From Corallococcus praedator (GTDB taxonomy: Bacteria > Myxococcota > Myxococcia > Myxococcales > Myxococcaceae), in assembly GCF_003612125.1 (NCBI RefSeq), contig NZ_RAWI01000010.1:1-58951 (forward strand): 58,951 bases of DNA. Direction: 5' to 3'. The notes beneath the pieces are model-generated. The model was not told the origin of the DNA. It did not search any database and saw only the letters and a list, made by a program, of their open reading frames with translations. Within the stretch, counting starts at the first letter, position 1; each line of letters begins with the position of its first letter. The position numbers and the translations under genes were made by a program. This document shows positions 7,418 to 32,483 of this stretch, in pieces.

Positions 7418-7526
7418 CCAGACGCCCCACGCTCAACTCGTGCGCACGTACAGCATCGCGTGGCTCACGACGCGTCTTACGCAACGGCCGCCCTGCCCAC
7501 CGGGCGCGGGGCGGCCGTTCGACGTC

Positions 7527-15288: not shown

Positions 15289-16134
15289 ATGGCGTCCCAT
15301 CCCGTCCCCACACCCATCGTCCTCCTTGGTGGAGGAAAGCTCGCGGAAGCCATCATCAAGGGGCTGCTGCGCTCCGGACAGGTGAGCCCGTCCGACCTCC
15401 GCGTCACCGTGCGCCGGCCCGAACGGGGCGAGGAGCTGCGCTCCCGGCACGGCGTGCACGTCCTCACCGACAACGCCCAGGCGGTGCGCGGCGCGGCGGT
15501 GGTGATGCTCGCGGTGCGACAGGCGCAGATGGCGGAGGTGATGGCGCTCATCGCCCCCGCGCTGGAGCCGGGCCAGGTGGTGGTGTCGCTGTCCTCGGAC
15601 GTGCGCCTCGCGCAGTTGGAAGCGGCGCTGCCGTCCACGGTCGCCGTCATCCGGGCCATGCCGCACACCCCGGTGGGCGTGGGCGCGGGGCTGACACCGC
15701 TCACGCAGGGCACGCGGGTCACGGAGGCCGCGCGGCAGGCGACCGACACCCTGTTCGCGGCGACGGGCCAGCCGTTGTGGGTGACGGAGGAGCAGCTCAC
15801 GGTCTGCACCGGCGTGTCCGGCACGGGCCCCGCGTATGTGTTCCGCTTCGTGGAGGCGCTGGCCCAGGCCGCGATGGCCCACGGGATGGAGGCCACGGAG
15901 GCGGCGGCACTCGCGAGGGGCACGCTGATTGGCGCGGCGAAGCTCCTGGCCGAACCCGGCGCCACCACCACGGGCCTCATCGCCGAGGTGGCGACCCCGG
16001 GCGGCATCACCGTGGCGGGGCTGGAAGCGCTGGAGACCCACGGGCTCTCACGCGTCGTGGGCGAGGCCGTGTCCATTGGCATCCAGCGCGCGAAGGAACG
16101 CGCGGAGCTCTCCGCTCACAGCGCGCCGAAGTGA
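15289..16134 (+). CDS. proC: pyrroline-5-carboxylate reductase
   Basis: N-terminal IVLLGGGKLAEAIIKGLL NADP fold plus C-terminal P5CR dimerisation domain (TGVSGTGPAYVFRFVEAL, ATPGGITVAGLEALE). Confidence 0.85.
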   Translation: MASHPVPTPIVLLGGGKLAEAIIKGLLRSGQVSPSDLRVTVRRPERGEELRSRHGVHVLTDNAQAVRGAAVVMLAVRQAQMAEVMALIAPALEPGQVVVSLSSDVRLAQLEAALPSTVAVIRAMPHTPVGVGAGLTPLTQGTRVTEAARQATDTLFAATGQPLWVTEEQLTVCTGVSGTGPAYVFRFVEALAQAAMAHGMEATEAAALARGTLIGAAKLLAEPGATTTGLIAEVATPGGITVAGLEALETHGLSRVVGEAVSIGIQRAKERAELSAHSAPK

Positions 16135-16799
16135 CGGCGCAGGCCCCGCTGGCCCGAGGGCGTGACGACGAGTCCGCGCGAGTCGGGTTGACGTTCCACC
16201 CAGCCCAGCGAGAACACCCGTGAGGCGAGCGCCGCCCCCAGCGCCCCGGCCAGGTGGTCGCGCCGCTCGCTCCAGTCCAGACAGCGGTGGGCGAACTGGC
16301 GGCGCTGTTCTCTCAAGGGGGCCAGCTCGATGCCGAAGGCCTCGAACCAATCCTCGCCGCTCGGGGTCAGCGCGAAGGCGCGGCGCCGCAGGGAGAGGTG
16401 CCCACCGCGCAGGAGCGCATCGGTGATGCCCATCCCGAGCCTTCCCGCCAGGTGGTCGTAGCAGTAGCGAGCGGCCCGGAGCGGCTCCGGCGTGGCCGAG
16501 GCCCGGGGTCCTCGGACGGCCACCGTCATCAGCGCCTCCACCATCCGCGCCACGGTGGGCGTGGCGAGCCGGAACACCTTGTTGCGCCCCTGGCGGGTCG
16601 AGCGGATCAACCGGGCCTGCTCCAGGCGCTTGAGGTGCACGGTGGCCGTCGCGGGGCTGACGCCGGTGCCGAAGGCCAGCTCCTTGGCGACGAGCGACCG
16701 CCCCTCCATGAGCAGCTCCAGCATCCGGATCCGCGTGGCATCCCCCACGGCGCCCGCCAGCGCGGCGAGGTCCGGCCCTGCATCCATCGTTCGTTCCAT
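16116..16799 (-). CDS. ArsR/SmtB-family winged-HTH transcriptional regulator with a C-terminal extension
   Basis: LAGAVGDATRIRMLELLMEGRSLVAKELAFGTGVSPATATVHLKRLEQARLIRSTRQGRNKVF; convergent with and overlapping the proC 3' end. Confidence 0.7.
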   Translation of the reverse strand: MERTMDAGPDLAALAGAVGDATRIRMLELLMEGRSLVAKELAFGTGVSPATATVHLKRLEQARLIRSTRQGRNKVFRLATPTVARMVEALMTVAVRGPRASATPEPLRAARYCYDHLAGRLGMGITDALLRGGHLSLRRRAFALTPSGEDWFEAFGIELAPLREQRRQFAHRCLDWSERRDHLAGALGAALASRVFSLGWVERQPDSRGLVVTPSGQRGLRRHFGAL

Positions 16800-16861
16800 G
16801 ACGAACCGTTTCCTAGCACAGGGAGGGTCCAGGAGGAGGACAGTGCCCGAAGCGAGGACTG

Positions 16862-18007
16862 ATGACACCGCCCACCGACCCGTATCAGGCCGTCACCCAC
16901 CCCGACCCCTACCCGTACTACGCCGCCCTGTGTGAACAGGGTGGCCTGCAGCGCATCCCGGGCTTCGAGCCGTGGATCGCGGCGGATGCCGCCACGGTGC
17001 AGGCCGTGCTCACGAGCGAGCATTGCCGGGTGCGGCCCCCGTCGGAGCCCGTTCCCCTGCATCTGGTGGACTCCGCCGCTGGCGTGCTCTTCGGGCGGCT
17101 GGTGCGGATGAACGACGCCGCGCCCTACCCGCTCGTGAAGCAGGCGCTGGCCGACGTGCTCCCCATGGTGATGCAAGCGGTGGCAACGGAGGGCCACCGC
17201 CAGGCCGCCCGGCTCTTCTCGGAGTCCCGGCTGTCGCGCCTGCCGGAGCTGGCGCTCCAGTTCCCCGTGCTCGTGCTCGGCTCCCTGCTGGGATTTCCAG
17301 AGGACACGCTGGAGGAGCGCGCGCGGGACGTGGAGGCCTATGTCCGTTCGGTCGCCCATCCTGCGGCGAGCCACGCGGGAGCAGAGGCGGCCGCGCGGCT
17401 CACTGAACATGTGGCCGTCAGCCTTCAAGCAAGGCCTCGCACCCCTGATGTGTTGAGCGCCTTCGCCGCGCGGATGCAACAGGTGGGAGCGCCCATCGCA
17501 GCGCTCGTGCCCAACGCGGTGGGATTGCTCACCCAGGCGTATGAAGCCACCGCGGGCCTCGTGGGGGCTTCACTGCTTGCCTTCGCGCGGATGCCCGAGC
17601 TGCGCGAGCAGCTTGCCCGGGGTGAGTGCTCGCTCGAGGACGTCGTCCGCGAAGCAGCCCGCCACGAGTCGCCGGTCCAGAACACCCGGCGCTTCCTCCC
17701 TGCGCGCGCGACGCTCGCGGGGCAGGAGTTGGAAGCGGGAGCGACGGTGGTCGTCGTGCTCGCCGCCGCGAACCGCGATCCCCGCGTGAATCCCCAGCCC
17801 GACGCCTTCCTCCCCCGCCGCGAGGCCCGCCGGACCTTCACGTTCGGACTGGGCGCCCATGCCTGCCCGGGACAGGCGCTCGCGGTGACGATGGCCTCCG
17901 CGGCCGTGGAGCGGGTGCTCGCGAGCGGCCTGGATCTCACCCCTCTGTCGCAATCCGTCACCTGGCGTGCGTCCACCAACGCTCGCATCCTGGGAGGTCT
18001 GTCTTGA
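16862..18007 (+). CDS. cytochrome P450
   Basis: Heme-binding loop FTFGLGAHACPGQALA (FxxGxHxCxG); EXXR (ESPVQNTRRF) region. Confidence 0.85.
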   Translation: MTPPTDPYQAVTHPDPYPYYAALCEQGGLQRIPGFEPWIAADAATVQAVLTSEHCRVRPPSEPVPLHLVDSAAGVLFGRLVRMNDAAPYPLVKQALADVLPMVMQAVATEGHRQAARLFSESRLSRLPELALQFPVLVLGSLLGFPEDTLEERARDVEAYVRSVAHPAASHAGAEAAARLTEHVAVSLQARPRTPDVLSAFAARMQQVGAPIAALVPNAVGLLTQAYEATAGLVGASLLAFARMPELREQLARGECSLEDVVREAARHESPVQNTRRFLPARATLAGQELEAGATVVVVLAAANRDPRVNPQPDAFLPRREARRTFTFGLGAHACPGQALAVTMASAAVERVLASGLDLTPLSQSVTWRASTNARILGGLS

Positions 18008-18882: not shown

Positions 18883-18988
18883 CCCGGCGCCGCCCGTGGC
18901 ACCTCTGCCATGAATTGAATTGGATGAGCCGCCACCTTCCAACGGGTATAGAATCCGCACCGCTCAGGCTCATGCACAAGGCGGCCCC

Positions 18989-20014
18989 ATGCTTGTTCTT
19001 TCCCTGATGACCTCCGCACACCTTCTTGGCGCGACGCCAGCGGCCCGGCTCGACATCCGGTGGGACACCTCCGAAGCAGACGCGGCCCTCGCCATCCTGG
19101 AGAAAGGCGAGGCGGCCAGCCCCTCCGACTGGAAGAAGCTCTTTCGCAGCAAGTGCTTCGTGCGGCTCGAAGCGCGAGAGGTCGCGCTGGGCAAGACACT
19201 GGGAACGCCTCGGACAGTCGACCTGGAGGCGTTCCGCCGTCACCTCACGAATCCGGAAGTGCGAAGCCAGAGAGCGACCTTCCTCCGCTCCCTTCAGGAA
19301 TGGAAGAAGACGGACCTGGAATCACTCTCGCGCAAGGTGCAGCGCTTCCTTCCCACCGGGAGTCCGCAGTCGTTCACCCTCTGCCCGATGATCAAGCCAC
19401 AGGACAACTCCTTCGTCTTCGACCTGGGCGGCAAGGAGCCTTCGATCTTCCTGTATCTCGATCCGAACCTCACCCAGCCGCAGTTCGAGGTCATGGTCGC
19501 CCACGAATCGCATCACGTGGGGCTTGGAGGGCACAAGCGTCCCGACCTCCTCGCGAAGGTCGAAACGCAGTCCCAGCAGGTCCAGGACGCCTGCCAATGG
19601 ATGGGCGCCTTTGGAGAAGGCTTCGCCATGCTCGCGGCCGCGGGGGGACCCGACGCGCATCCCCATGCGGTGAGCAAGGTCGAGGACCGGGAGCGCTGGG
19701 ACCGGGACATCGCGAACTTCCCCCAACACTTCGCGGAGCTGGACGCCTTCTTCGTGAGCATCCTCGAAGGCCGACTCAAGGGAGATGCCTTGCGCCAGCA
19801 AGCCGCCCGCTTCTACGGTCCTGAACAAGGCCCCTGGTACACGGTCGGCTACCAGATGGCGGTCCTCGTCGAGCGGCATCTGGGGCACGCCCGGCTCCTT
19901 CAATGCATGGAGGATCCACGCCTCCTGCCCGGCGCGTATGAAGAAGCCACGGCGAAGGCTGGCGGTACCCGGCCGCACTGGAACGCGAAGCTCCTCGAGC
20001 GACTGGCGTTCTGA
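18989..20014 (+). CDS. hypothetical secreted protein with an HExxH motif (putative zinc metallopeptidase-like)
   Basis: N-terminal signal-like MLVLSLMTSAHLLGATPA; VMVAHESHHVGL (HExxH); no confident family assignment. Confidence 0.4.
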   Translation: MLVLSLMTSAHLLGATPAARLDIRWDTSEADAALAILEKGEAASPSDWKKLFRSKCFVRLEAREVALGKTLGTPRTVDLEAFRRHLTNPEVRSQRATFLRSLQEWKKTDLESLSRKVQRFLPTGSPQSFTLCPMIKPQDNSFVFDLGGKEPSIFLYLDPNLTQPQFEVMVAHESHHVGLGGHKRPDLLAKVETQSQQVQDACQWMGAFGEGFAMLAAAGGPDAHPHAVSKVEDRERWDRDIANFPQHFAELDAFFVSILEGRLKGDALRQQAARFYGPEQGPWYTVGYQMAVLVERHLGHARLLQCMEDPRLLPGAYEEATAKAGGTRPHWNAKLLERLAF

Positions 20015-22213
20015 TCACCGGAGCTGGGCGGCCACCAGCGCGTTGTAGTGGCTGCCCTGGGAGAGCAACTCGCGGTGGGTCCCCATTTCGACAATGCGGC
20101 CCTTGTCGAGCGTGATGATGAGATCCGCGCCCACCACCGTGCTGAGTCGATGGGCGATGACGATCCGGGTGCAGTTCAGCGCGGCAAGCGAGGCCTGGAC
20201 GCGCTGCTCGGTGATGGCATCCAAGGCGCTCGTGGCCTCATCCAGCAGCAGGATGGACGGCTTGCGGACCAGTGCACGCGCCAGGGCCAGCCGCTGCCGC
20301 TGACCGCCGGACAGCGAGGCGCCCCGGTCCACCAACGGCGTGTCATAGCCCATGGGCATCGCCATGATTTCATCGTGGATCTGCGCCAGCTTCGCCGCCT
20401 CGATGATGTCGTCCAACGGCAGCTCGGGATCGGCCAGGGCAATGTTGGCGCGCAGGGAGCCGCCGAAAATGTACGCGTTCTGCATCACGATTCCGACCTG
20501 ACGCCGGACCGAGCGCAGGTCGACCTCGCGCAGGTCCCGTCCATCGAAGCGAATCAGCCCCTCCGACGGCGAGTAGAGGCCCAGAAGCAGACTCGCGAGC
20601 GTGGACTTGCCCGCGCCCGTTCGTCCGACAATGGCCACCAGCTGCCCGGGCTTGACCACCAGATCGAGGTCCTGGAGCACCAACGGCCCGTTGGACGCAT
20701 ACCGGAAGGACACCTTCTCGAAAGAGATGCCTCCCTGAAGCACTCCCACCGGAGAGCAGGAGTCCGCTGCCTGCTCCGGCTCCGCCTGCATGACGTCGTT
20801 GATCCGCTCCAGGTAGCCGTTGAGCACCTGGACCTGGGCTGACGTGGACAACAGGTTCGACAGGGGGATGAAGAAGCCCGCGGACAGCGCGCTGAGCGCC
20901 ATCAGCGTGCCAAGGCTGAACTGTCCCCCCAACACCTGCGCGGCCCCAAAACAGAGCACCACGAGCGGCGAGCCCAGGCGCAAGGTGGCCTGGAGGGATT
21001 CCGTCAACGCGTTCAGGTGCCCCCGCTTGAGCGCCACGTTGAGGACATCCACCAGCATCCCCGACCAGCGCTCCGCGGCCCGGTATTCCACCCCCATCGC
21101 CTTGAGCGTCTCGATGCCCGCCAGCATCTCGATCTGGAACGTGCGCGAGCGCGCCTCCGCCTCCAGGTTCTGCGCCATCAGCTCGTACTGCTGCCGCCGC
21201 GTCGCCACGAAGATCATGACCTGGACCAGCGTCAGGCCCAGGACCAACAGGAAGATGGGGATGCTGATGAACGCGAGGATGACCAGACACAGCAGGCTCA
21301 TCACCCCATCCAGCACCGAGGACAGAAGCCCCGTGGTGAGCAACTCCCGCACCGCGGAGTTGCTGGACAGGCGGTTCATCAGGTCGCCCGAGGAGCGCCG
21401 CTGGAAGAAGGCATAGGGCAGGTCGAGCAGATGCTCCAGGAAGCTCAGGGTCATCTGCGCATCCAGCTCCACCCGCATGGCCACCAGGAAGAACGAGCGC
21501 GTGAGGGAGGAGAGCAGGTAGAAGAGCATCACCGACGCCATGGCCGCGCTGAGGATCCACAGCAACTGGACATCCCCGCGCGGAACCACCTTGTCGACCA
21601 GGACTCCCGTCAGCGCGGGCAGTCCAAGGGCAAAGAGCTGCACAAGCAACGAGGCGACCAGGATTCGCGCCAACAGCCCGGACTGCACCAGCAGCTTGTA
21701 AGCGTACCGTCGCAACGGCCGCTCGTCGGAGCGGGCCTTCTCGAAGGACTCTCCCGGCTCGAGCAACAGGGCGATGCCGGTAAAGGAACGGCTGAACTGG
21801 GCAAGGGCGATCCTGCGCCGCCCCACCCCTGGATCGACCACGTCGACCCATTCTCCGTCGAGCCGCTCGAAGAGGATGAAGTGCTGGAACTCCCAGTGGA
21901 GGATGGACCCGGGAGGCAGGTACTGCAGATCTCCCAGCTCCAATCGGGCGGCGCGCCCCCGCATCCGGAAGTGGCTGGCCGCGGCGAGGATCCCGGCGAG
22001 GCTCGCGCCATCGCGGGACAGCCCCATCACATCCCGGACCTCGTCCAAGCGGACTTCTCGGCCATGGTAGTTCAGCAGCATGGCCAGACAGGCCGCGCCG
22101 CACTCGGTGGCGCTGAGTTGCTGGATGTAGGGCAGCCGCTTGCGAGGGGCCTTGGGAATCAGCCGCCGCAGGGACGGAAACCGCTCGAGCAGGGACCTTG
22201 AAGTATCGGGCAT
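20015..22213 (-). CDS. peptidase-containing ABC transporter (PCAT): N-terminal C39 double-glycine peptidase, 6-TM domain, C-terminal ATPase
   Basis: C39 Cys motif QQLSATECGAACLAMLLNYHG; Walker A GRTGAGKST; signature LSGGQRQRLALARAL; Walker B ILLLDEATSALD. Confidence 0.9.
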   Translation of the reverse strand: MPDTSRSLLERFPSLRRLIPKAPRKRLPYIQQLSATECGAACLAMLLNYHGREVRLDEVRDVMGLSRDGASLAGILAAASHFRMRGRAARLELGDLQYLPPGSILHWEFQHFILFERLDGEWVDVVDPGVGRRRIALAQFSRSFTGIALLLEPGESFEKARSDERPLRRYAYKLLVQSGLLARILVASLLVQLFALGLPALTGVLVDKVVPRGDVQLLWILSAAMASVMLFYLLSSLTRSFFLVAMRVELDAQMTLSFLEHLLDLPYAFFQRRSSGDLMNRLSSNSAVRELLTTGLLSSVLDGVMSLLCLVILAFISIPIFLLVLGLTLVQVMIFVATRRQQYELMAQNLEAEARSRTFQIEMLAGIETLKAMGVEYRAAERWSGMLVDVLNVALKRGHLNALTESLQATLRLGSPLVVLCFGAAQVLGGQFSLGTLMALSALSAGFFIPLSNLLSTSAQVQVLNGYLERINDVMQAEPEQAADSCSPVGVLQGGISFEKVSFRYASNGPLVLQDLDLVVKPGQLVAIVGRTGAGKSTLASLLLGLYSPSEGLIRFDGRDLREVDLRSVRRQVGIVMQNAYIFGGSLRANIALADPELPLDDIIEAAKLAQIHDEIMAMPMGYDTPLVDRGASLSGGQRQRLALARALVRKPSILLLDEATSALDAITEQRVQASLAALNCTRIVIAHRLSTVVGADLIITLDKGRIVEMGTHRELLSQGSHYNALVAAQLR

Positions 22214-22220
22214 GACGCGC

Positions 22221-23156
22221 TCAGGGCAGGAAGGCCTTCAACGCTGGAACCAGGAGGACGAGCAGGCGCTCTGACTTGACCCGTGCCTGGGCCTGCCCGA
22301 GCATTCCGTCGAAGTAGTCGAGCTGCTCCCCCTCCACCTCGAAGGAGGTCCGGGGCACATGCGCCTGCACGAGCACGACGGCGCCCTCGACCGTGAAGCT
22401 CTCCCCCAGTTCGGGGCCCAGGTAGCGACGCACGGCGCTCGGCCCCACCAGCTCCTCGCCCACGGAATCGATGACGAGCTCCTGGTACTGGTAGGCGAAA
22501 CCCCGCACCTCCAAACGCATGGAGCCTCCCGCCCGAAGCAGGGGCCGGTATTCGCCCGGAAGCATCGCGGTCACCGTCAGCCGCTGGGACGGCTCCAGGA
22601 TCGACAGCGCCACCTCGCCGGCCACCAGATGCTGGCCCTCGCGGATGCGGACGTCGCTGACCACGCCCGCATGCGGCGCCAGCACGTTCCGGGACGACAG
22701 CCGGGCCCGCGCCAGCTCCTGCTGGGCACGAAGGCTGGTCAGCGCCGAGCGAGCCCCCTCGTCGTTGAGGTCGGTCAACCGCCGCGTCAGCTGCAGTTCG
22801 AATTCCCGGGTGAAACGTTCCAGGTCGGCGAGCTCCGTCGTGTCCGAAAGCCGCACCAACACCTGGCCCTGTTCAACCCGTTGCCCCGGACGCGCCTCCA
22901 CCGCCGTCACGACGCCTGACTCCTGGACGGGCAGTTCCGTACGACCTTCCAGGCGGATGACCGCGGGCCCCGTGGCGTACTCGAAGACGCGTCCGAAGAG
23001 ACCGAACGCGACGAAGAAGACCGAGGCCACGAGCACGAGCCAGAAGAGCGAGTGGGTCCAGGAAGGCGAGATGCGCAGGACCGCGCTGTACTGCTGGTTC
23101 TGGTTGTAGGCCTCGAGCGCCTCGGGGCGAAAAAGCTCCTCGTGCTTACGCGGCAT
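22221..23156 (-). CDS. HlyD-family membrane fusion (secretion adaptor) protein
   Basis: Single N-terminal TM (LFWLVLVASVFFVAFGLFG), then a coiled-coil/barrel-sandwich HlyD pattern; 8-bp gap to the PCAT gene. Confidence 0.7.
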   Translation of the reverse strand: MPRKHEELFRPEALEAYNQNQQYSAVLRISPSWTHSLFWLVLVASVFFVAFGLFGRVFEYATGPAVIRLEGRTELPVQESGVVTAVEARPGQRVEQGQVLVRLSDTTELADLERFTREFELQLTRRLTDLNDEGARSALTSLRAQQELARARLSSRNVLAPHAGVVSDVRIREGQHLVAGEVALSILEPSQRLTVTAMLPGEYRPLLRAGGSMRLEVRGFAYQYQELVIDSVGEELVGPSAVRRYLGPELGESFTVEGAVVLVQAHVPRTSFEVEGEQLDYFDGMLGQAQARVKSERLLVLLVPALKAFLP

Positions 23157-23186
23157 GAGCGTGCTCCTTCCAGAAGCCGTCTGGCC

Positions 23187-24146
23187 TCATTGAGACACGC
23201 AGGGGGCCGACTCGGTCGTCGCGCCACCGCCATCCGCTTCGGGCCGGACCCGGACCACTTCGCCAAAGGTGAACCGCATGTCGGTTGAACCGGTGTCCTG
23301 CACCGCCGTCGCGAACACCATCCGGGAAGCGGCATCCACCTCCGCGGCGATGCTGGTCACCTTCGCGCGCAGCAGCGCCTCCCCCGCCTTGGGACGCACC
23401 ACCACGGAGGCGCCCACCGCGAGGTCGCGGACCTGCCCCTCGGGAATGGCGAAGCGAACCCAGCCATCCTTGTCCTGGATGACCCGGAGGATGGGCGTGC
23501 CCACGCGCACCAGGGCTCCCACGGAGAGATAGCGCGCCGTCACCACGCCATCGAAGGGCGAGCGCAACCGGCCCTCCGCCAGCCGGGCCCGTGCCTGCTC
23601 CAGTTCGGCCTGCCGCTGCTGCAAGCGCGCCCGGGCGGCCTCCAGGTCCGCGACGGCCATCTGATGCTGGAAGCGGGCTTGCGCCACTTCCTGCGCGGGC
23701 AACACCCCCGCCGCGGGCAGCTCCGCGCGCGCCAGCAAGTCCTTCTTTTCATCCACGCTGACCCGCGCGCGGAGTTCCTCCGCCCGGGCGACCGCGAGCG
23801 CGGCCTCGGCCACGGCCAGCAGCTGCTCTTCCTCCTTCAGCTCCAGGACACCCAGCTCCGCGCCTTCCTTGACCCGGTCCCCCTCGCGCACGGCCAGCCG
23901 CTTCAGCCTGCCTTCCACGCGCGCGGTCACCTCCGCCGACTGCGCGGACAACGCCACCCCCAGCCACTCCTCACGTCGAAGCGCGATGGGAGGCCTGCAG
24001 GGCCCCCCACGCGTCAGGCTTGAAGAGGGTTCACGAAGGGGGATGACCCGGCTCTTGACGATGACCAAACCCAGGCAGGCGGACAGCGCCGCCAGCAGTC
24101 CGACAGCGCCGAGCCGAGTGGTCGACCAGCGTTTGAAGTACCTCAT
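23187..24146 (-). CDS. second HlyD/biotin-lipoyl-like periplasmic adaptor protein
   Basis: N-terminal TM (LGAVGLLAALSACLGLVIV), long Ala/Glu/Arg coiled coil, C-terminal beta-barrel segment. Confidence 0.6.
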   Translation of the reverse strand: MRYFKRWSTTRLGAVGLLAALSACLGLVIVKSRVIPLREPSSSLTRGGPCRPPIALRREEWLGVALSAQSAEVTARVEGRLKRLAVREGDRVKEGAELGVLELKEEEQLLAVAEAALAVARAEELRARVSVDEKKDLLARAELPAAGVLPAQEVAQARFQHQMAVADLEAARARLQQRQAELEQARARLAEGRLRSPFDGVVTARYLSVGALVRVGTPILRVIQDKDGWVRFAIPEGQVRDLAVGASVVVRPKAGEALLRAKVTSIAAEVDAASRMVFATAVQDTGSTDMRFTFGEVVRVRPEADGGGATTESAPCVSQ

Positions 24147-24182
24147 CTCCAGGGCCAGCCTACAGTGCCGGAGCAGACGCGA

Positions 24183-25409
24183 TCAAATGGTCGTCCTGCC
24201 CGCCATCTGCCCTGTGTTGAGCAGGTTCAACCCCGGGCAGGACCGCACGACCTTGTCTCCGTCACGCTCGGAATTGGCCAGCATCATGGTTTCGTCCGAC
24301 GCGTCCCGGAAGCCAGGCGCGGCCCAGACCTCGGGGAGGGAGGCCTCGTGCGCGTTCCCGAAGCCGCCGGGAAACAGCTCGCAGGTGGCGATGCGGCCCT
24401 CCGCGTCGATCTTGACCTTCATCTTTCCCGCGCCGCAGGGGGAGGGAGCAAAGGGCTTCAGCCAGCCGTTGCTGACCAGCTGGTTGCGCACGAGGGGCGA
24501 AATCCTCAGCGCCTGGGGAGAGCGGTCTCCGTTGAGCCGGCCGTGGATGATGTCGTCAAAGACGATGTAGTGGCCCAGTTCCTCCATCTGCTGCTTCATC
24601 TCCGCGAGCTGATCCGTGTTGCGCGTCCAGATGGTGCAATTGACCTTCACGCGGATGCCCACGTCCGCCAGGGCCCGCAGCCCCGCCATCGTCTTCACCA
24701 GGCTGCCTGCGACCGCCGTGAACTCGTCGTGGACCTCGGCGGTCGACCCATAGAGGCTGGCGTGGGTTTCGTGAGCGGGATCCTTCGCATAGTCCCGGGC
24801 CCGCTGCGCGGTGAACGTCGTCGCGTTCGTCTTGAGCACCGTATAGAGGTGCAGCGACTTCGCCTCGGTGACGAAGCGCTGGTAGCCGCGATGGAGCGTC
24901 GCCTCACCGCCGGTGAGGCTGACATCCAGACAGCCCATGGACGCCAGGTCCCGCAGCATCCGGAGCACCGTCTCGTCATCCACGTGCGCCGGCCGCTCCT
25001 CCTCGATCTTGTGCAGGACGAAGCAGTGCTGACACCGCAGATTGCAGCGGTAGGTGATCTCACACATTCCCGTCAGGGGAATGCGCTCCTGGAGGGACAG
25101 CTTGGGCAGCCGCGCTCCTGCCGCCCCCTTGAAGAGTCCTCCCATCGGGATCGGCTGCGAGACCTGCTGGAACTGGGCGAAGACGCCGCGGATCGCCTCG
25201 ATGACCGCCTGCTGTTGGGCATTGTCGGAAGAGCCCCCCTCCACCAGGCGCAGCAGACCGTCGAGCCCTGAAGACTCGACCAGTCTGCGCATCACCGTGA
25301 CCAGGGGGCCGTGGGCCAGATGACGCGCGCCATCGCGGCGACTCAGGACGGCCAGCTCATCATCATAGAAACGGAGGACCACCGCCTCGCTTCGATAGAT
25401 CGAGATCAT
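24183..25409 (-). CDS. radical SAM / SPASM-domain peptide-modifying enzyme with an N-terminal RRE-like extension
   Basis: CxxxCxxC (ITYRCNLRCQHCF) about 130 aa from the N-terminus; C-terminal Cys-rich SPASM region (CELFPGGFGNAHE..., SCPG). The ATG overlaps the stop of the upstream rSAM gene (ATGA). Confidence 0.85.
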   Translation of the reverse strand: MISIYRSEAVVLRFYDDELAVLSRRDGARHLAHGPLVTVMRRLVESSGLDGLLRLVEGGSSDNAQQQAVIEAIRGVFAQFQQVSQPIPMGGLFKGAAGARLPKLSLQERIPLTGMCEITYRCNLRCQHCFVLHKIEEERPAHVDDETVLRMLRDLASMGCLDVSLTGGEATLHRGYQRFVTEAKSLHLYTVLKTNATTFTAQRARDYAKDPAHETHASLYGSTAEVHDEFTAVAGSLVKTMAGLRALADVGIRVKVNCTIWTRNTDQLAEMKQQMEELGHYIVFDDIIHGRLNGDRSPQALRISPLVRNQLVSNGWLKPFAPSPCGAGKMKVKIDAEGRIATCELFPGGFGNAHEASLPEVWAAPGFRDASDETMMLANSERDGDKVVRSCPGLNLLNTGQMAGRTTI

Positions 25410-26644
25410 GCCCGCTCCTTCTCCCGCCACGTGTCCCACTGATTTCGGAACTCAGCCAGCCCGCCCTCGCGCATGAGGAGGTTGTTCGCGGGACACGGGG
25501 ACTTCAAACTGGCGCCACGAACGAAGCCCGCTGATTTGCAGTATTCGATCCAGAATTCACGAAACGCCGTCAGGTCCGCGGACCGGTTCCAGATGGCTTC
25601 CAGCCCCTGCTCGAAGGCATTTCCAAACAGGAGGGTGAGCTTGGGACATGCCCGAACGCTGCCGTCGGGCTCGATTCCCAGGCCGTTCATGGACGGCGTA
25701 CAAGGCAGTTCCCGCTTCTGCTTCACTTCCTTGCGCGGGATGTCCACCGTCAAGCCATCCGGTGCGGGTTTGCCGTCGAAGATGTCACCATGGATGGTGA
25801 CCGCCGCATATTTCACCTTCACGCCCAGCGGCATCAGCAGTTGGTTGATCTGCTCGTAGCCATGGTTCGTCGTGGAGGTCGCGAAATACTTCACGTGGAC
25901 AGGAACGCCCTCCTCCACGAGGTGACGCACGCCTCGGATGCTTGCATCATGTCCGGCCTTGGAGCCGGTGTAGCCCTCGGAGGAGGCCGCGTCGTAGCCG
26001 TAGATGGAGACCTCCACGCTTGAGACGAGCACGTTGCGCAAGGCCTTGGCGATGCGAGGCGTGATGCAGGAGCCGTTGGTGTTGATCTCCGCGGAGATGT
26101 TCTGCGCGCTGAGCGCATCCAGGAGGGTGAGGATGTCGGGGCGGATGAAGGGCTCTCCACCCGTGATGGTGGCGTAGGTGCACCCCAGCTCACCGGCCTG
26201 CCGGATGAGCGTCAACCATTGCTCGGTGGTCCCCTCGTGGCGCGATGCTCCAGACACCGGGGCAAGGCGTGCGCCCAGATAGCAGCCCTTGCACGCGAAA
26301 TTGCAGCGATGCGTCAACTCCAGATGCATCTTCCGGAGCTGCGGACGGGGCGGGGGTTCACGCGAGTCCAGGTCGAAGTCGGCTTCGTTCTCCAAGGCGC
26401 CCCGGGTGGCGAGCTTGGAGATGGCAGCCAGCACCCGGGCCCGGCTGGGGAGGTCCAACCCCCTCATGACGGTGTGCTGCATGTCGCTCTGGAGCTCCGC
26501 GAGCCCCACCAAGGTATCCCAGAGCTGGGCCGCTGGCCCCGACAGGGTGAACGACTCAGGATGAGGCATGCTCCAAGTCGCATGCGGAGTGATGCGATAG
26601 GAGCCATCTGGCTCCCGTTCAAATGAACTTTGAAGCTTGATCAC
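25406..26644 (-). CDS. radical SAM / SPASM-domain peptide-modifying enzyme with a PqqD-like RRE N-terminus
   Basis: LELTHRCNFACKGCYL radical-SAM cluster motif; auxiliary-cluster cysteines (CTPSMNG, CPKL, CPANN); N-terminal FTLSGPAAQLWDTLVG PqqD-like; GTG start with GGAGGG SD. Confidence 0.85.
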   Translation of the reverse strand: MIKLQSSFEREPDGSYRITPHATWSMPHPESFTLSGPAAQLWDTLVGLAELQSDMQHTVMRGLDLPSRARVLAAISKLATRGALENEADFDLDSREPPPRPQLRKMHLELTHRCNFACKGCYLGARLAPVSGASRHEGTTEQWLTLIRQAGELGCTYATITGGEPFIRPDILTLLDALSAQNISAEINTNGSCITPRIAKALRNVLVSSVEVSIYGYDAASSEGYTGSKAGHDASIRGVRHLVEEGVPVHVKYFATSTTNHGYEQINQLLMPLGVKVKYAAVTIHGDIFDGKPAPDGLTVDIPRKEVKQKRELPCTPSMNGLGIEPDGSVRACPKLTLLFGNAFEQGLEAIWNRSADLTAFREFWIEYCKSAGFVRGASLKSPCPANNLLMREGGLAEFRNQWDTWREKERA

Positions 26645-26717
26645 TTTGCCCTCCCGTCGGTCACCCTGCCGGAGACAGCTCCGTTGGGAACGGTTGCCTA
26701 ACGGACGTCAGACTGAA

Positions 26718-26894
26718 CTAGGCGCACTTCGAGCTGCAGATGATGATGTCACCGTCATCGCTGCCGCTCTTGAGGCCGCCCGTGATGTCCAGCAGGCGCG
26801 AGTCCACGCTGTCGATGGCCTTGCCGAGCTCGAGGCTGAGCTTCTGGGTCTTCTCGTTCTGGGCAACGGCGTCCTGCGTCTTGCTCTCGTTCAT
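26718..26894 (-). CDS. RiPP precursor peptide (58 aa) with a double-glycine leader and an 18-aa Cys/Asp/Ser-rich core; not in the ORF track (<60 aa)
   Basis: ATG with GGGAG SD. MNESKTQDAVAQNEKTQKLSLELGKAIDSVDSRLLDITGG-LKSGSDDGDIIICSSKCA. Leader fits the LSxxELxxIxGG-type consensus recognised by C39 peptidases. High GC3. 73 bp upstream of the rSAM pair, same strand. Confidence 0.75.
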   Translation of the reverse strand: MNESKTQDAVAQNEKTQKLSLELGKAIDSVDSRLLDITGGLKSGSDDGDIIICSSKCA

Positions 26895-27298
26895 GTTCAG
26901 CTCCCTTGGGTGGCACTGCGGTACAACACCTGGAGTGGATGGCGACCTGGGCCCCCACCTTCAGCGCGACGGGACTGACACAGCCTTGGCAACACCGAGG
27001 GCAGTGGAGCAGATCCTTCCTGGCCTGCGCCTGGGAAGGGATTCGACTCACACAAGCACCTTCCAGACAGCACAGGGCACCAAGGTGCCCTCCTCCCCCA
27101 CAAGTCCGCCCCGCACAAGATTGACGAAGCATCCAACAGCTAACGCGCCCCTGTCAATCCGGCAAACCCCGCTTACGAACTCAACTGGCATTGCCCCCTC
27201 ACAATCGCGCACACGCCCCCCAATCCACTTTCAATAACGCGTCAAGCCAAGTCTTCGCGAGATGAGAGGCGATCTCCCGCAAAAGCACGCAGCGACTC
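26895..27298 (-). promoter_or_regulatory. intergenic leader/promoter region of the precursor-rSAM-exporter operon (~400 bp, lower GC than the flanks)
   Basis: Non-coding in all frames, relatively AT-richer; no convincing sigma-54 or sigma-70 consensus could be placed by eye. Confidence 0.3.
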
Positions 27299-29983
27299 CT
27301 AATGAGCGCGGAGGAAGTCCTGGACGCTCTGCTGCTGCAGCTTCGCGGATTCAATGCACAGCCGGATGGACTCCAGCGCCCGGGCCAGTGCGCGCGGCCC
27401 GCCCTCCACGCGCTTCACGCGGGGCGCAAGGAAGGCCTCCGCTTCCGCGAGCTGGGTCGCATCACAGAGATTGCCCACCTGGTTGATGAGTCCACCCTGC
27501 TCATCCGAGCGCAGTCGCTGCGAGAGCACGTCGAACTGCTGGCGGTAGAACTCCCAGGCCAGAGGCTGCGTCTCCGGCATGTTCAGCGACATCTTCAGGA
27601 TGGCCAGGGCATCCCGCGTGTCGAAGTCCGACCCCACCACCAATCCCAGTGCCCGTCGCTCCAGCTCCGGCTGCCGGAAATAGCTCAGCGCCGACAGCAG
27701 CCGGACGCGCTCGTTGCGGTCCTGCTCCTTCTTCGCGGCCTCCAACAATGCATTGAACAGCGAGGCATCGCCGTGGGACGCCGCCCGGGGCAGCGCGCTG
27801 GCCAGCGCCTCCGGGTCCACGGACTTCCGGTCCGCGAGCCACGCACGCACCAACGGCGTGGCTTCCTTCAGCAGCGCCGGATCCTCACCCAGCCCGCCCG
27901 CCAGCCGCAGGAACAGCGAACGCGACTGCTTCACGTCGTCACCGTCGCCGGGCTTCGACACCCACCCCAACGCCCGTGCACGCGGCGCATAGAGCGACGC
28001 CACCCAGGCGCGAAAGCGCTTCCGCTCCTCCACCGAAAGCCGGTCCACCCGCACCTGCCAGAGCAGCGCGGCCGCGCTCTCCACCACCAGCCGCTCCGGC
28101 GAGCGCGCCGTGGCAGGCACAGCCTCCAGCGCCTCCCCGAGCGGCAGGTCTCCGCGACCCACCGCCGCGTCCACGTCCGCCCAGAGGGCCACCTGCTCTC
28201 CCGTCGTGAACGCCGACGCCGGGGTCGCCAGCAGCTTCGCGAGCTGCTCACGCGTGTAGCCGCCGCGGTAGTACCCCGTGCCGCCCGCGTTGAGCAGGAC
28301 CCACGCCGGGCACTGCTTCGTCGGCAGCGCCACCTCCATCGAAGGCCCCTGCAACATCGAGCACACCCGGGATGACCGCGTCCCCGTCCCCGCGCGCAGA
28401 CACACCGGCACCTGCCATTCCTGCTGCGTGCTCGCCCGGGAGCCGGCGGGCAGATACCGCTCCTGCGACAGCTTCACCGTCGGCGCGCCCCCCGCCGGGC
28501 ACGTCACCTGGGCGGACACTCGTGGCGCCCCGCCCTTCTCGATGAAGCCCTTGAAGGAGCTCGCCACCTCCGGCCCCGCCGCCTGGGACACCTCCGCCAG
28601 GAAGTCCTCCGTCGTCACGGCGCCCCACGCGTGCTTGCGGACGTAGCCTCGCATCACGTCGCGGAAGCGCTCCGCCCCCAGCCACGCCTCGAACATGGCG
28701 ATGACGGACGAGCCCTTGTCATACGTCGTCCCATTGTCGAACGAACCCACGATGTCGTCGTTGCTCGCCACCGGCTTGCGCACCGGCAGCGCGGCCTCCA
28801 GCGCATCCGAAGCCAACGCCGACTCCGTCGCGGACATGGCCCGCTCCTGCTGGAAGCTCCAGGACGGCTCAAGCCGGTCCACCGTCTGCCGATCCAGCCA
28901 CGCCGTGAACGACTCGTTCAACCAGATGTCATCCCACCAGGCATTGGTGACGACGGCGCTGAACCAGTAGTGCCCCAATTCGTGGTTGGCGATGACCGCG
29001 TAGGAACGGCGCCGGTTCAGCGTCTCCTCCCCGGGAGGAATCAGCGTCAACGGCTGCCCGAGCGCCACGAGGCCCGGGTGCTCCATGGTGCCCCAGTACC
29101 GGGGCACCACCGCCACATCCAGCTTCTCGTAGGGATACGTCTGGTCGAAGAAGTCCTCCAGGCCCTTCACGATGCGCGGCGTGACGCTCGCGGCGTAGCG
29201 CGTCTCCCCGCCCCGCCCCTTCGGCACGATGAAGCGCAGGGGCACGCTCGCGCGCCCCACCGCGCCCGCCTCCACCACGTCGAACGGCCCCACGATGAAC
29301 GCCACCAGGTAGCTGGGCATGGGCCGGCTCTCCGCGAACGTGACGCGCTCCAGCCCGTCCGCCACGGGCTCGCGCGAGACGACGGGATGGTTGGCCAGGG
29401 CCACGTGCCCCGGCTTCACCGTCAGGCGCAGCTTCCATGGCACCTTGAAGGCCGGCTCGTCGAAGCACGGGAAGGCGCGCCGCGCGTCGATGGGCTCGAA
29501 GAACGTGTAGAGATACGACTCACCGCCCTCCGCCTGTCCATAGACACCCTGGCTGCGCTCGCGGTCCACCTTGCCGGTGAAGTCCAGGGTGAGCGTCGCC
29601 GTGCCCACGGGCAGCTCCTCCGGCAACAGCAATCCCAGCCGTCCTTCACTTTCGGAGACGGGCTTCGCGTCGAAGGTGCGGCCGCCCACCGTCACCCTGG
29701 CGCGCGTCACTTCCAGGTCCTGGCCATGCAGCCACACCTGACGCACCGGCTCGCGCACCTCCACGTCGATGCTCACGCTGCCCGGATAGGTGGCCTCCGC
29801 GGGCAGCAGCTTCAGGTCCAATGCGTAGCGCAGGGGCCGCACCGTGTCCGGCAGCCGCAGCACGGGAGGCCGGGGCTCCGGCCATGCGAGGGTGGCAGGC
29901 GCGGCGGCCGGGGGCGCGGCCTCCGGCGCGTGGGCACAGCGGACGGTCACCGCGACAACAAGCGACAGGAGGAGTCGGTTCAT
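27299..29983 (-). CDS. secreted M1-family zinc aminopeptidase (aminopeptidase N-like)
   Basis: Signal peptide MNRLLLSLVVAVTVRCAHA; GTMEHPGL (GAMEN-type) exopeptidase motif; HELGHYWFS...18 aa...NESFTAW (HExxH-x18-E). Confidence 0.9.
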   Translation of the reverse strand: MNRLLLSLVVAVTVRCAHAPEAAPPAAAPATLAWPEPRPPVLRLPDTVRPLRYALDLKLLPAEATYPGSVSIDVEVREPVRQVWLHGQDLEVTRARVTVGGRTFDAKPVSESEGRLGLLLPEELPVGTATLTLDFTGKVDRERSQGVYGQAEGGESYLYTFFEPIDARRAFPCFDEPAFKVPWKLRLTVKPGHVALANHPVVSREPVADGLERVTFAESRPMPSYLVAFIVGPFDVVEAGAVGRASVPLRFIVPKGRGGETRYAASVTPRIVKGLEDFFDQTYPYEKLDVAVVPRYWGTMEHPGLVALGQPLTLIPPGEETLNRRRSYAVIANHELGHYWFSAVVTNAWWDDIWLNESFTAWLDRQTVDRLEPSWSFQQERAMSATESALASDALEAALPVRKPVASNDDIVGSFDNGTTYDKGSSVIAMFEAWLGAERFRDVMRGYVRKHAWGAVTTEDFLAEVSQAAGPEVASSFKGFIEKGGAPRVSAQVTCPAGGAPTVKLSQERYLPAGSRASTQQEWQVPVCLRAGTGTRSSRVCSMLQGPSMEVALPTKQCPAWVLLNAGGTGYYRGGYTREQLAKLLATPASAFTTGEQVALWADVDAAVGRGDLPLGEALEAVPATARSPERLVVESAAALLWQVRVDRLSVEERKRFRAWVASLYAPRARALGWVSKPGDGDDVKQSRSLFLRLAGGLGEDPALLKEATPLVRAWLADRKSVDPEALASALPRAASHGDASLFNALLEAAKKEQDRNERVRLLSALSYFRQPELERRALGLVVGSDFDTRDALAILKMSLNMPETQPLAWEFYRQQFDVLSQRLRSDEQGGLINQVGNLCDATQLAEAEAFLAPRVKRVEGGPRALARALESIRLCIESAKLQQQSVQDFLRAH

Positions 29984-30134
29984 GGCTCCGGAGCGTAGCG
30001 CCCTCCCAACCGACGTCCAGGGTAACCACCGACCCGAAGGGTTTGAACAGACACCCGCCTCCAATGCAATCACAGTCTGTGTTTCCTGATTCAATCTGGT
30101 AGATCGAAACACTCTCCCCCACCAGGAAGGTGCG

Positions 30135-32483
30135 ATGCGTCGGCAGCCCCCTCTGTCTAGCGTTATGCTTTACATGGTAACCAGCTTTGCAATGGCTGTC
30201 ATGGCTTGCAGCCCTGACACCGCCGAGCCCGTGCCCGAAACCGGAGACGTGCGGTTCATCAGCGCGGTGCCCCAGGCGCTCGCGGGCGATGAGGTCACCC
30301 GGGTGACCGTGACGCTGACGGCCACGGGCGTGCCCTCGTCCACGGCCGTGCTCACGAAGAGCGCGGACAGCTGGAGTGGCACGCTGTACCAGGTCCCCGC
30401 GGGCACCCAGCGAACCTTCACCGCGGAGGCCTTCGCGGCGGACGGCTCGCTGCGCTACCGCGGCGCGGCAACGGATGTCACCATCACGGCGGGCACCACG
30501 TCGGTCGTCGCCATCACGCTCCAGGCCCTGAATGTGCCCGGGCCCTTCGACAACTCCGCGCCCTGCATCGACTCGCTGGTGGCGTCCGCCAGCACCGTGC
30601 TGCCCGGGGGCACGCTGTCCCTCCAGGCCACCGCGCATGACCCGGACACCTCGGACACGTTCACCTATGCGTGGACGGCGACGGGCGGCACCTTCGGCTC
30701 GGCCGCGCTCGCCTCGACGACCTGGACGGCCCCCGCGACGCCGGGCGTCGTCACGCTGACGCTGACGGTCACCGACTCGCGCGGCGCCGCCGCGGTCATC
30801 CGCATCAACATCACGGTCATCTCGACGGACGGCGGACCGGACTCGGGCGTGGCCCAGGTGTCCGTGACCTTCAACGTCTCCCCCGCCGTGAACCGCGTCA
30901 CCGCGTCGCAGTCCCCGCTGCCGGTGGGCCAGAGCACCACCGTGGTCGCGGACGTGACGGATCCGGACGGCGATGCGCTGACCTACCAGTGGACGGCGTC
31001 CTGCGCCGGAACGTGGACCGACGCCACCGCCAGCACGGCGTCCTTCACCCCGAGCGCGGTGCCGGCCGGCGAGTCCTGCGGCAACTGCTCGCTCACCGTC
31101 ACCGTGAAGGATCCGAACGGCGGCCAGACGCAGGGCACCCTGCGCATCTGCGTCGGCACGGGTCCCGTCGCCAACGTGCCCCCGCGCATCGTCCTGTCGA
31201 ACCAGAGCGCGCTCTCCGTGGCGGGCAATGGCACCGTGACGTTCCGCGTCCTCGCGGAGGACGGCAATGGCAGCGCGCTCACCTTCGCCTGGGCGTCGAG
31301 CCACGGCACGCTGGGCACGGCCACCTCCGGGTTCACCTCCAGCGAGATCGCCTGGAAGGCCCCGGCCTGCATCCCCGATGGCCCCAGCCCCACCATCAGC
31401 GCCACCGTCACGAACGCCCTGGGCTTCTCCGCGTCCACGAGCTTCAGCGTCGCCGTGGTGGGCGTGCCGACCTGCACCCCGCCTCCGGAGAGCACCGTCG
31501 CGCGGTGGGATGCCACGGCCGCCATGACGGTCCGTCGCTTCGGCGCGAGCGTCATCCCCCTGCCCTCCGGCAAGATCTTCGTCTTCGGGGGAGTGACCGT
31601 GTCGAACCCCGTCCTGGTGTCCGGCGAAATCTATGATCCCGCCACGGCGACCTGGGCCCCGGCCACCTCCATGGGGACGGCGCACTACTCGCCGGCGGTG
31701 ACCCTGCTGCCCTCCGGAAAGCTCCTGGTCACGGGAGGCTTCGGGCTCTACCCAAGCACCACCCCGCTGCGCAACGTGGAGCTCTACGATCCCGCCACCA
31801 ACACCTGGACGGCCGGGCCGACCATGGCGTTCGCGCGCGGGAGCCACACGTCGACGCTGCTGCCCAACGGCAAGGTGCTCATCATCGGCGGAAACACGTC
31901 GGGCGACACCGCGAGCAATCGCATCCCGGAGCTGTTCGACCCCGCGACGATGACGTTCGTGCCGGTGGCGGCCTCGACCTTCGTCCATACGGGCCACCTG
32001 GCGGTGTTGCTGCCGTCGGGCAAGATCCTCGTCTTGGGCGGCAACTCCCCGGCGGAGTTCTATGATCCGGCCACCAACACCTGGAGCAACGCCACGGGGC
32101 TCATCAACCGCAACTTCACGCACGCCTTCCTGCAGCCATCGGGCAAGCTCCTGCTGGCCGGGAGCACCACCCTGATCGCGCTGTATGACCCCGTGCTCAA
32201 CGTCCAGACGACGGCGGGGAACTTCAGCTACGACCGCCCGACGTCCTCCATCGTCCAGTTGGCGTCGGGAAAGCTCCTGCTGGCGGGAGGCAACTCCCTG
32301 GTGGGCCTGACGACGGAGCTCTTCGATCCGGCCACCGGGACGACGTCCTTCTCCATCAGCATGGCGTCGAACCGCTATTCGATGGGCACCACCCTGCTGC
32401 CCAACGGCAAGGTGCTCTTCATTGGCGGGTATGACCGGGACGCGGGGGCGAGCGTCAACGCGGCCCTCCTCTACACCCCCTGA
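30135..32483 (+). CDS. lipoprotein with N-terminal Ig/PKD-like domains (paralogous to 7527-9902) and a C-terminal Kelch-repeat beta-propeller
   Basis: Lipobox AMAVMACSPD. N-terminal about 330 aa align with the RCC1 lipoprotein (NVPGPFDNSAPCIDSLVAS...TYAWTATGG vs NAPAPFENTAPVITSLVAS...TYAWTASAG). C-terminal Kelch blades (GKLLVTGG, GKVLIIGG, GKILVLGG...). AGGAAGG SD. Confidence 0.8.
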   Translation: MRRQPPLSSVMLYMVTSFAMAVMACSPDTAEPVPETGDVRFISAVPQALAGDEVTRVTVTLTATGVPSSTAVLTKSADSWSGTLYQVPAGTQRTFTAEAFAADGSLRYRGAATDVTITAGTTSVVAITLQALNVPGPFDNSAPCIDSLVASASTVLPGGTLSLQATAHDPDTSDTFTYAWTATGGTFGSAALASTTWTAPATPGVVTLTLTVTDSRGAAAVIRINITVISTDGGPDSGVAQVSVTFNVSPAVNRVTASQSPLPVGQSTTVVADVTDPDGDALTYQWTASCAGTWTDATASTASFTPSAVPAGESCGNCSLTVTVKDPNGGQTQGTLRICVGTGPVANVPPRIVLSNQSALSVAGNGTVTFRVLAEDGNGSALTFAWASSHGTLGTATSGFTSSEIAWKAPACIPDGPSPTISATVTNALGFSASTSFSVAVVGVPTCTPPPESTVARWDATAAMTVRRFGASVIPLPSGKIFVFGGVTVSNPVLVSGEIYDPATATWAPATSMGTAHYSPAVTLLPSGKLLVTGGFGLYPSTTPLRNVELYDPATNTWTAGPTMAFARGSHTSTLLPNGKVLIIGGNTSGDTASNRIPELFDPATMTFVPVAASTFVHTGHLAVLLPSGKILVLGGNSPAEFYDPATNTWSNATGLINRNFTHAFLQPSGKLLLAGSTTLIALYDPVLNVQTTAGNFSYDRPTSSIVQLASGKLLLAGGNSLVGLTTELFDPATGTTSFSISMASNRYSMGTTLLPNGKVLFIGGYDRDAGASVNAALLYTP

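Follow-up and report, generated by a model that had tools for sequence, protein, structure and literature searches.

A radical SAM enzyme pair and its probable peptide substrate in Corallococcus praedator: a conserved family of putative secreted, modified peptides

Introduction

Is the short open reading frame (ORF) that precedes two radical S-adenosylmethionine (SAM) enzyme genes in the genome of Corallococcus praedator a real gene, and, if it is, what do the two enzymes make of its product? Peptides modified by radical SAM enzymes have yielded much new enzyme chemistry, as well as antibiotics. The window, i.e. the whole stretch of DNA that was analyzed, comprises 58,951 nucleotides (contig NZ_RAWI01000010.1, positions 1 to 58,951, RefSeq assembly GCF_003612125.1), and the ORF, of 58 codons plus a stop, is located at nucleotides 26718-26894 on the minus strand. 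An earlier reading of the DNA, referred to here as the original prediction, had proposed that this ORF encodes an unannotated precursor peptide with a 40-amino acid double-glycine leader. The analysis described below indicates that the 58-codon gene is real and that it very probably encodes a precursor from which a secreted, enzyme-modified peptide is made, belonging to a family that had not been described previously.

The precursor gene

The minus-strand frame starts with an ATG at nucleotides 26894-26892 and ends with a stop codon at 26720-26718. Its translation consists of MNESKTQDAVAQNEKTQKLSLELGKAIDSVDSRLLDITGG, which ends with the GG pair of residues 39-40, followed by the 18-amino acid C-terminal portion LKSGSDDGDIIICSSKCA, which includes Cys53 and Cys57. 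The interval and the 58-amino acid translation given by the original prediction are correct and the gene lies on the minus strand; when the same interval is read on the plus strand only nonsense is obtained. The leader (residues 1-40) is encoded by nucleotides 26894-26775 and the portion that follows the GG pair (residues 41-58) by nucleotides 26774-26721, within which the codons for D49-I-I-I-C53-S-S-K-C57, the presumed site of modification, occupy nucleotides 26724-26750. A Shine-Dalgarno sequence, AAGGGAG, was read from the sequence at nucleotides 26901-26907, 6 nucleotides 5' of the ATG.

The G+C fractions at the three codon positions of the ORF are 0.53, 0.39 and 0.95, in a genome of about 68% G+C where the third-position value (GC3) of the neighboring genes is 0.80-0.89, and none of the alternative ORFs overlapping this interval has the codon-position pattern of a real gene. 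On the strength of the Shine-Dalgarno site and of the GC3 of 0.95, the latter seen in this frame only, the ORF was judged to be coding. It is not unannotated, as had been thought, since its product is an exact match to the RefSeq protein WP_158620272.1, although this entry carries no function and is named "MULTISPECIES: hypothetical protein [Corallococcus]". No GenBank accession is listed for the peptide, whereas two are listed for the neighboring enzyme, and for this reason we presume that the ORF was overlooked in the original GenBank submissions.

The gene is the first of a compact six-gene operon on the minus strand that encodes the peptide, two radical SAM enzymes, two HlyD adaptors, and one C39-peptidase ABC exporter, with successive gaps of 73, -4, 36, 30, and 7 nucleotides. 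Enzyme 1 (25406-26644, minus strand, 412 amino acids) begins with a GTG, and the N-terminus that results from this start agrees with the family consensus DGSYxLxP. Enzyme 2 (24183-25409, minus strand, 408 amino acids) has an ATG that overlaps the stop codon of enzyme 1 as ATGA, and it is identical to WP_120582411.1, a "radical SAM protein" of Corallococcus praedator. The two RefSeq matches agree with the myxobacterial origin assumed by the original prediction.

Conservation of the peptide and of the locus

A phmmer search with the precursor against 1.84 billion representative proteins detected two homologues of 56 amino acids (E values 2.3e-7 and 5.6e-5), and a profile built from 11 peptides retrieved 24 clusters at 90% identity. 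When all sources were pooled the family included 35 distinct homologous peptides of 47-67 amino acids, every one of which has exactly two Cys residues spaced as CX3C. They share the motif D-[VI]-x-[VI]-C-x-[S/T/G]-x-C. A position table of the 35 peptides, numbered from the first Cys as 0, shows Val or Ile at -3 and at -1 without exception, Asp at -4 in 32 peptides with Pro in the remaining three, and Ser (29 peptides), Thr (3) or Gly (3) at +2; the second Cys is followed by Ala, Phe, Ile, Leu or Gly and then by 0 to 10 further residues. Conservation is concentrated in about nine residues, and the CSSKC element that the original prediction had pointed out is the conserved heart of the family. 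The acidic SDDGD tract, which had been taken as a feature of the core, turned out to belong to a variable linker of which only the last Asp is conserved.

Upstream of the motif, an amphipathic segment, L-x-K-A-[IV]-[DE]-x-[IVL]...D...L, is common to the leaders. In the window peptide and its two closest relatives the leader ends with DITGG, an ending also seen in the subfamily members P0114 and P0117, after which there is an acidic linker of variable sequence, 8-9 residues long (LKSGSDDG, VSEIGDGGD, and IEQQPAEDG). In two larger sister subfamilies the leader ends with ...[ST][VI]SAG, two residues before the Asp, and their clusters also hold C39-ABC genes. In other relatives the conserved block is immediately preceded by a Pro, and S9 (prolyl-oligopeptidase-type) peptidases are present in their clusters. 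No Pfam or NCBIfam model matched the peptides even at an E value of 10. A survey of the literature that included the literal motif strings as well as Corallococcus and myxobacterial radical SAM peptides found no paper on the family; this survey covered open-access texts only and is not proof of absence. In some relatives there are tandem precursor genes, the products of which differ chiefly after the second Cys (nucleotides 7462-7611 and 7730-7897 in locus L086; 5165-5380 and 5493-5690 in L101; 2218-2400 and 2256-2561 in L095, where the ORFs overlap as extracted and the boundaries are provisional).

The family of enzyme 1 is sharply bounded: it consists of 43 protein clusters that are 42-76% identical and are found with E values of 1e-89 or better, while the next match has an E value of only 1e-23. 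Related loci were collected as the contigs of nine enzyme 1 relatives and ten loci from a metagenome scan with the C-terminal half of enzyme 1. Just upstream of the enzyme 1 orthologue, and on the same strand, a peptide gene with the motif is found in 19 of 21 loci. As for the two exceptions, the contig of L098 has no upstream sequence, and in L093 the place of the precursor, immediately upstream of enzyme 1, is occupied by an ORF (9-452) which we take to be an IS5-like DDE transposase. The motif filter, [VI]x[VI]Cx[STG]xC within 12 residues of a stop codon, was also run over all six reading frames of 1.1 Mb of control DNA made up of unrelated radical SAM loci (L001-L080) and the whole window, and the single match was the window ORF itself. 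Wherever a locus extends far enough, the gene directly after enzyme 1 is an enzyme 2 orthologue (38-67% identical). Gene order in these loci shows that the peptide, enzyme 1 and enzyme 2 constitute a conserved three-gene core. The conservation of the small ORF beside a radical SAM pair in other genomes, proposed as a check by the original prediction, was confirmed decisively, and the homologous peptides together with the conserved locus bear out its view of a genuine precursor adjoining two radical SAM enzymes.

Beyond the core the loci diverge. In L084, a 76%-identical relative, an orthologue of HlyD adaptor 1 (62% identical) comes directly after enzyme 2. In most relatives that place is taken by a third, B12-binding radical SAM enzyme (14361-16094 in L082; 7674-9341 in L083; 10492-12141 in L085; 10459-12150 in L086; 8211-9863 in L087; 10976-12139 in L089; 10490-12139 in L090; about 5103-6668 in L095), usually accompanied by MFS or MacB exporters and S9 peptidases; C-methylation is a possible role for it. 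No B12-dependent enzyme follows enzyme 2 in the window cluster, in the Kofleriaceae cluster L091, or in L084, the contig of which ends within the following HlyD gene.

The leader and the exporter

The end of the leader, ...RLLDITGG, has Ile at -4 and Leu at -7 with respect to the putative cleavage site, as expected for a double-glycine leader. The last gene of the operon (20015-22213, minus strand) encodes a peptidase-containing ABC exporter (PCAT) of 732 amino acids with a C39 peptidase, a transmembrane domain and an ATPase (Pfam Peptidase_C39, with an E value of 1.8e-30, ABC_membrane and ABC_tran). Its N-terminal 160 residues match LahT150 (6mpz, the best match, E value 4.4e-26) and PCAT1, and Gln32, Cys38, His111 and Asp127 are in register with the catalytic residues of these two proteins. 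These features support the assignment of the leader to the double-glycine type, paired with an apparently intact C39 peptidase-ABC exporter of the same operon, and the 40-amino acid leader of the original prediction is supported on the same grounds. Given an intact C39 domain, the GG pair, and the hydrophobic positions -4 and -7, cleavage would take place after Gly40 in the course of export. Among the NCBIfam models, the exporter is best matched by the NHLP-type NHLM_micro_ABC1, for which the score was 616 bits, short of the cut-off of 853, and neither Nif11, NHLP nor the other curated leader models matched the window leader.

Between enzyme 2 and the exporter there are two genes for periplasmic adaptors, both on the minus strand. 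Adaptor 1 (23187-24146) is of the HlyD/RND type (TIGR01730, 109 bits for a cut-off of 94.9; Pfam HlyD_D23 and HlyD_3) and adaptor 2 (22221-23156) is of the HlyD type (Pfam HlyD_3 and HlyD_D23).

The two radical SAM enzymes

Both enzymes have the CX3CX2C radical SAM motif, which in enzyme 1 is C114/C118/C121, and they are only 24% identical to each other. The original prediction had described them as a radical SAM-SPASM pair; the two radical SAM enzymes were found as stated, but not the full SPASM domain, for which the Pfam matches are weak (30 and 23 bits). When compared with the seven-Cys SPASM motif, CX9-15GX4C...CX2CX5CX3C...C, the CX13GX4C portion and one or two further Cys residues are present and the CX2CX5CX3C block is absent. 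In enzyme 1, C315, C333 and C384 are conserved in 41 of 41 members and C369 in 34, and in enzyme 2 only C325, C343 and C391 are kept, in all eight members. Since only three or four C-terminal Cys residues are conserved and the block mentioned above is missing, both enzymes probably possess a twitch-like domain with a single auxiliary cluster, which in enzyme 2 could be ligated by no more than three Cys residues.

An AlphaFold2 model of enzyme 1 (predicted local distance difference test score, pLDDT, 91) includes an N-terminal beta3-alpha3 domain, and this modeled structure shows the fold of a RiPP recognition element (RRE), the putative leader-binding module of enzymes that act on ribosomally synthesized peptides that undergo post-translational modification (RiPPs). 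The closest structure to enzyme 1 is that of the thioether synthase SkfB; identity of the two enzymes to any solved enzyme is 24% or less. An RRE may be present in enzyme 2 as well, to judge from its sequence pattern. The Pfam PqqD/RRE models matched neither N-terminus. In the first RRE strand, residue 6 of enzyme 1 is a Cys (Cys6) in 40 of 41 members, and the window enzyme, with a Ser (codon 6, nucleotides 26627-26629), is the sole exception.

With NCBIfam, the top match of enzyme 1 was ScmF (97 bits; ScmE, 58 bits; cut-off 400), and enzyme 2 reached 75 bits with ScmF, 58 with ScmE, and 79 of the 625 needed with StsB, its best match. The best scores with sactisynthase models were those of StsB (79/625), SkfB (62/300) and AlbA (55/850), and no ranthipeptide or SCIFF maturase model was among the significant NCBIfam matches. 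As in sactipeptide systems, the locus combines a Cys-containing core with a radical SAM enzyme that has both an RRE and an auxiliary domain of the SPASM or twitch type.

Proposed modification of the peptide

Taken together, we regard it as highly probable that the window peptide is a radical SAM RiPP precursor, that is, a peptide made on the ribosome, modified post-translationally, and secreted. Both paralogous enzymes would bind the leader, and each would introduce one radical modification within the C-terminal D-[VI]-x-[VI]-C-x-S-x-C motif. The chemistry that we favor, by analogy with known enzymes and with slightly less than even confidence, is the formation of one Cys-derived thioether per enzyme. 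This preference is based on four considerations: no other feature of the substrate is as rigid as the two Cys residues, a thioether synthase of the twitch type is the nearest relative by structure, an auxiliary cluster with three Cys ligands implies that an iron site is open, and in PapB and Tte1186 the chalcogen of the substrate directly contacts an auxiliary cluster (PMC10177961). Open sites of auxiliary clusters bind substrate in MoaA and CteB, and such a site has been observed in the structure of SkfB (PMC6231123). The thiolate of the peptide would then bind to the three-Cys auxiliary cluster while the 5'-deoxyadenosyl radical abstracts a hydrogen from the acceptor carbon. Because at most 11 residues, and in the window peptide only one, follow the second Cys, the acceptors would have to be upstream of the Cys residues or between them. 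One crosslink per enzyme, with acceptors upstream of the Cys residues, had been suggested by the original prediction, and both are reasonable proposals. Candidates are the invariant Val/Ile at -3 and -1, which would be attacked at the alpha-carbon in the manner of SkfB, and the near-invariant Asp at -4, which would be attacked at the beta-carbon in the manner of PapB with the order of the residues inverted. An acceptor located upstream of the donor Cys reportedly has a precedent in work on NxxC ranthipeptides. The modified peptide would be cut after Gly40 by the C39 domain while being exported across the Gram-negative envelope, and the variable linker of 8-9 residues (LKSGSDDG in the window peptide) may be trimmed later.

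Several points weigh against this interpretation. Both enzymes fall far below every curated NCBIfam cut-off, so that no sactipeptide or ranthipeptide maturase model is reached, and reactions of uncharacterized radical SAM enzymes are not predictable without very high identity to a known enzyme (PMC10288494). The fourth C-terminal Cys of enzyme 1, present in 34 of 41 members, means that its cluster may be fully ligated; an hhalign comparison between the N-terminal domains of enzymes 1 and 2 gave an E value of only 0.08, which bears on the RRE of enzyme 2; and the Pro that replaces Asp at -4 in three of 35 peptides weakens the case for Asp as an obligatory acceptor. In addition, a promoter and terminator scan of the operon yielded nothing above background.

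A broader possibility, which we consider somewhat doubtful, is that the enzyme pair installs a modification pattern outside any named RiPP class, and that the peptides represent a new class, found in Myxococcota and in further bacteria that are mostly uncultured, with the B12-dependent radical SAM enzyme adding further tailoring in most members. Possible patterns include two overlapping thioether rings, with acceptors N-terminal to or between the donor Cys residues of the 9-residue [VI]x[VI]CxSxC cassette, or a scaffold that combines a crosslink with epimerization.

Alternative readings

The main rival to thioether formation, which we consider unlikely, is an epimerization in the manner of EpeE/YydG, which act on epipeptides. 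The enzymes would convert the two invariant beta-branched residues, Val/Ile at -3 and -1, to D-amino acids, and the CX3C pair would form a disulfide after export.

A still less probable fate is the excision of a small product, a redox cofactor or a metal-binding compound made in the manner of pyrroloquinoline quinone (PQQ) or mycofactocin, with only the short C-terminal motif surviving proteolysis. Conservation limited to the motif, the Pro that stands right before it in several relatives, and the appearance of PqqE among the best matches in the PDB by sequence all agree with such a product, as do the peptidases found by the clusters, of the S9 family in relatives and of the M1 and DUF5700 families beside the window operon. 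A TonB-dependent receptor gene (16091-17287 in L082) adjoins one related cluster and hints that a product might be re-imported, as a metallophore would be. On the other hand, this receptor is a single occurrence, and neither the M1 and DUF5700 genes nor any partner oxidoreductases are conserved. Moreover, an exporter is present in every cluster seen, be it a C39-ABC protein with HlyD or an MFS/MacB system, and it is the universal presence of exporters that leads us to prefer a secreted product over a cofactor or a metallophore. To our knowledge, exporters are not typical of the PQQ or mycofactocin pathways.

That one or both enzymes are cyclopropyl synthases, which would convert Val/Ile into (methyl)cyclopropylglycine as TvgB and TigE do, is very improbable. 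A Gly-Tyr-Trp (GYW) motif, the Tyr of which is a ligand to auxiliary cluster I, is reported to be unique to all cyclopropyl synthases and required for their activity (PMC10878394). Its absence from all 41 enzyme 1 and all eight enzyme 2 sequences largely refutes the idea, and neither a full SPASM domain nor a repeated core motif is found here.

Finally, the notion that the 58 codons form an open frame by chance, within intergenic DNA rich in G+C, and that the enzymes use another substrate, which could appeal to the frequency of long spurious ORFs in this genome and to the several that overlap nucleotides 26718-26894, is refuted by the conservation data, as the 35 homologues keep their position and their motif across genomes of 50-72% G+C, and by the GC3 pattern and Shine-Dalgarno site described above.

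Neighboring genes

Directly upstream of the operon there is a gene for an M1-family aminopeptidase (27299-30112, minus strand; Pfam Peptidase_M1_N, Peptidase_M1 and ERAP1_C), and downstream, in convergent orientation, one for a putative zinc peptidase of the DUF5700 family (18920-20014, plus strand). No orthologue of either was found in the related loci, and for lack of such conservation the membership of the aminopeptidase in the system is doubtful. One or the other may act as the trimmer of the variable linker left after cleavage at the GG pair. The G+C content of the operon (0.61-0.67 over nucleotides 20015-26907) compares with 0.70-0.74 in the flanks (17000-18000 and 27600-28800), and this lower value suggests a relatively recent horizontal acquisition.

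A possible attenuator hairpin between the peptide gene and enzyme 1 was rejected, as its folding energy was no better than that of shuffled sequences (z -0.17), and Rfam gave no matches over the whole window. An ArsR-family regulator, a cytochrome P450 and a large secreted protein with Kelch/PKD/Big_9 repeats are encoded nearby (16116-18007 and 30135-32483) with no evident tie to the operon. An ORF on the plus strand at 48572-50752, 22 kb from the operon, has 32% identity to the S9 peptidase of L085 and is probably unrelated.

Significance

An anonymous "hypothetical protein" has become a defined family of 35 peptides with one 9-residue motif and a minimal, invariant three-gene set. Of the forms seen, the Corallococcus cluster is the simplest: it is without the B12-dependent third enzyme of most relatives, has a leader and exporter of a well-understood type, and resides in a cultivable predatory myxobacterium, all of which make it the most convenient member of the family for studies of the chemistry. 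If the enzymes are thioether synthases with acceptors upstream of the Cys residues, they would widen the range of known ring topologies and provide compact enzymes with a single cluster as tools for peptide stapling; should they carry out another reaction, it would represent new radical SAM chemistry. We see the finding as a solid genome-mining lead and a good target for experiments rather than as a conceptual surprise.

Comparison with known systems

As a whole, the system resembles a sactipeptide or ranthipeptide pathway combined with a leader and an exporter in the style of class II bacteriocins or NHLP peptides. The nearest structural relative of enzyme 1, the twitch-domain sactisynthase SkfB, acts on the sporulation killing factor precursor SkfA, in which the donor Cys is upstream of the acceptor Met, whereas both Cys residues of the window family are at the extreme C-terminus. 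The Skf system has one enzyme instead of two paralogues, identity of SkfB to the enzymes described here is about 20%, and the 62 bits obtained with the rSAM_skfB model fall well short of its cut-off of 300. The window system also differs from it in its Gram-negative host, its double-glycine leader and its PCAT exporter.

Like PapA/PapB, the freyrasin system, the window family combines a near-invariant pair of Cys and Asp with three residues between them and a putative radical SAM maturase of a leader-bearing peptide. PapB joins the Cys sulfur to the Asp beta-carbon in CX3D and reportedly tolerates altered spacing and orientation of the thiol and the carboxylate (PMC9413430). Unlike PapA, which has six repeats, each window-family peptide has a single motif in which the order is inverted (DX3C), with Pro instead of Asp in three members, and the auxiliary domain of the enzymes appears to hold one cluster and is not a full SPASM domain.

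The side-by-side arrangement of two radical SAM maturase genes with a short Cys-containing precursor is shared with the two-enzyme sactipeptide clusters of thuricin CD (TrnC/TrnD) and ruminococcin C (RumMC1/RumMC2), in which adjacent maturases and short Cys-containing precursors are found (PMC12093266, PMC8188230). The sequences of these maturases, and of their precursors with multiple N-terminal donor Cys residues, are unrelated to those described here. The window system has a single precursor with two C-terminal Cys and an enzyme pair that, at 24% identity, is conserved throughout the family. A conserved pair of radical SAM/SPASM-type enzymes, ScmE/ScmF, is likewise present in SynChlorMet, which is itself uncharacterized and with which no shared peptide motif was found.

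With respect to secretion, the end of the leader, GG or, in the sister subfamilies, AG, and the hydrophobic residues at -4 and -7 are like those of double-glycine peptides exported by LahT and PCAT1. Unlike NHLP and Nif11 systems, the operon includes two HlyD adaptors but encodes no second ABC subunit, its leader has no curated model, and its exporter scores below the cut-off. At the level of sequence the window system misses the hidden Markov model cut-offs of the maturases, the leader models, the full SPASM motif and the GYW motif. What these comparisons describe is a new, well-delimited family within a known kind, the radical-SAM-modified RiPPs with double-glycine leaders.

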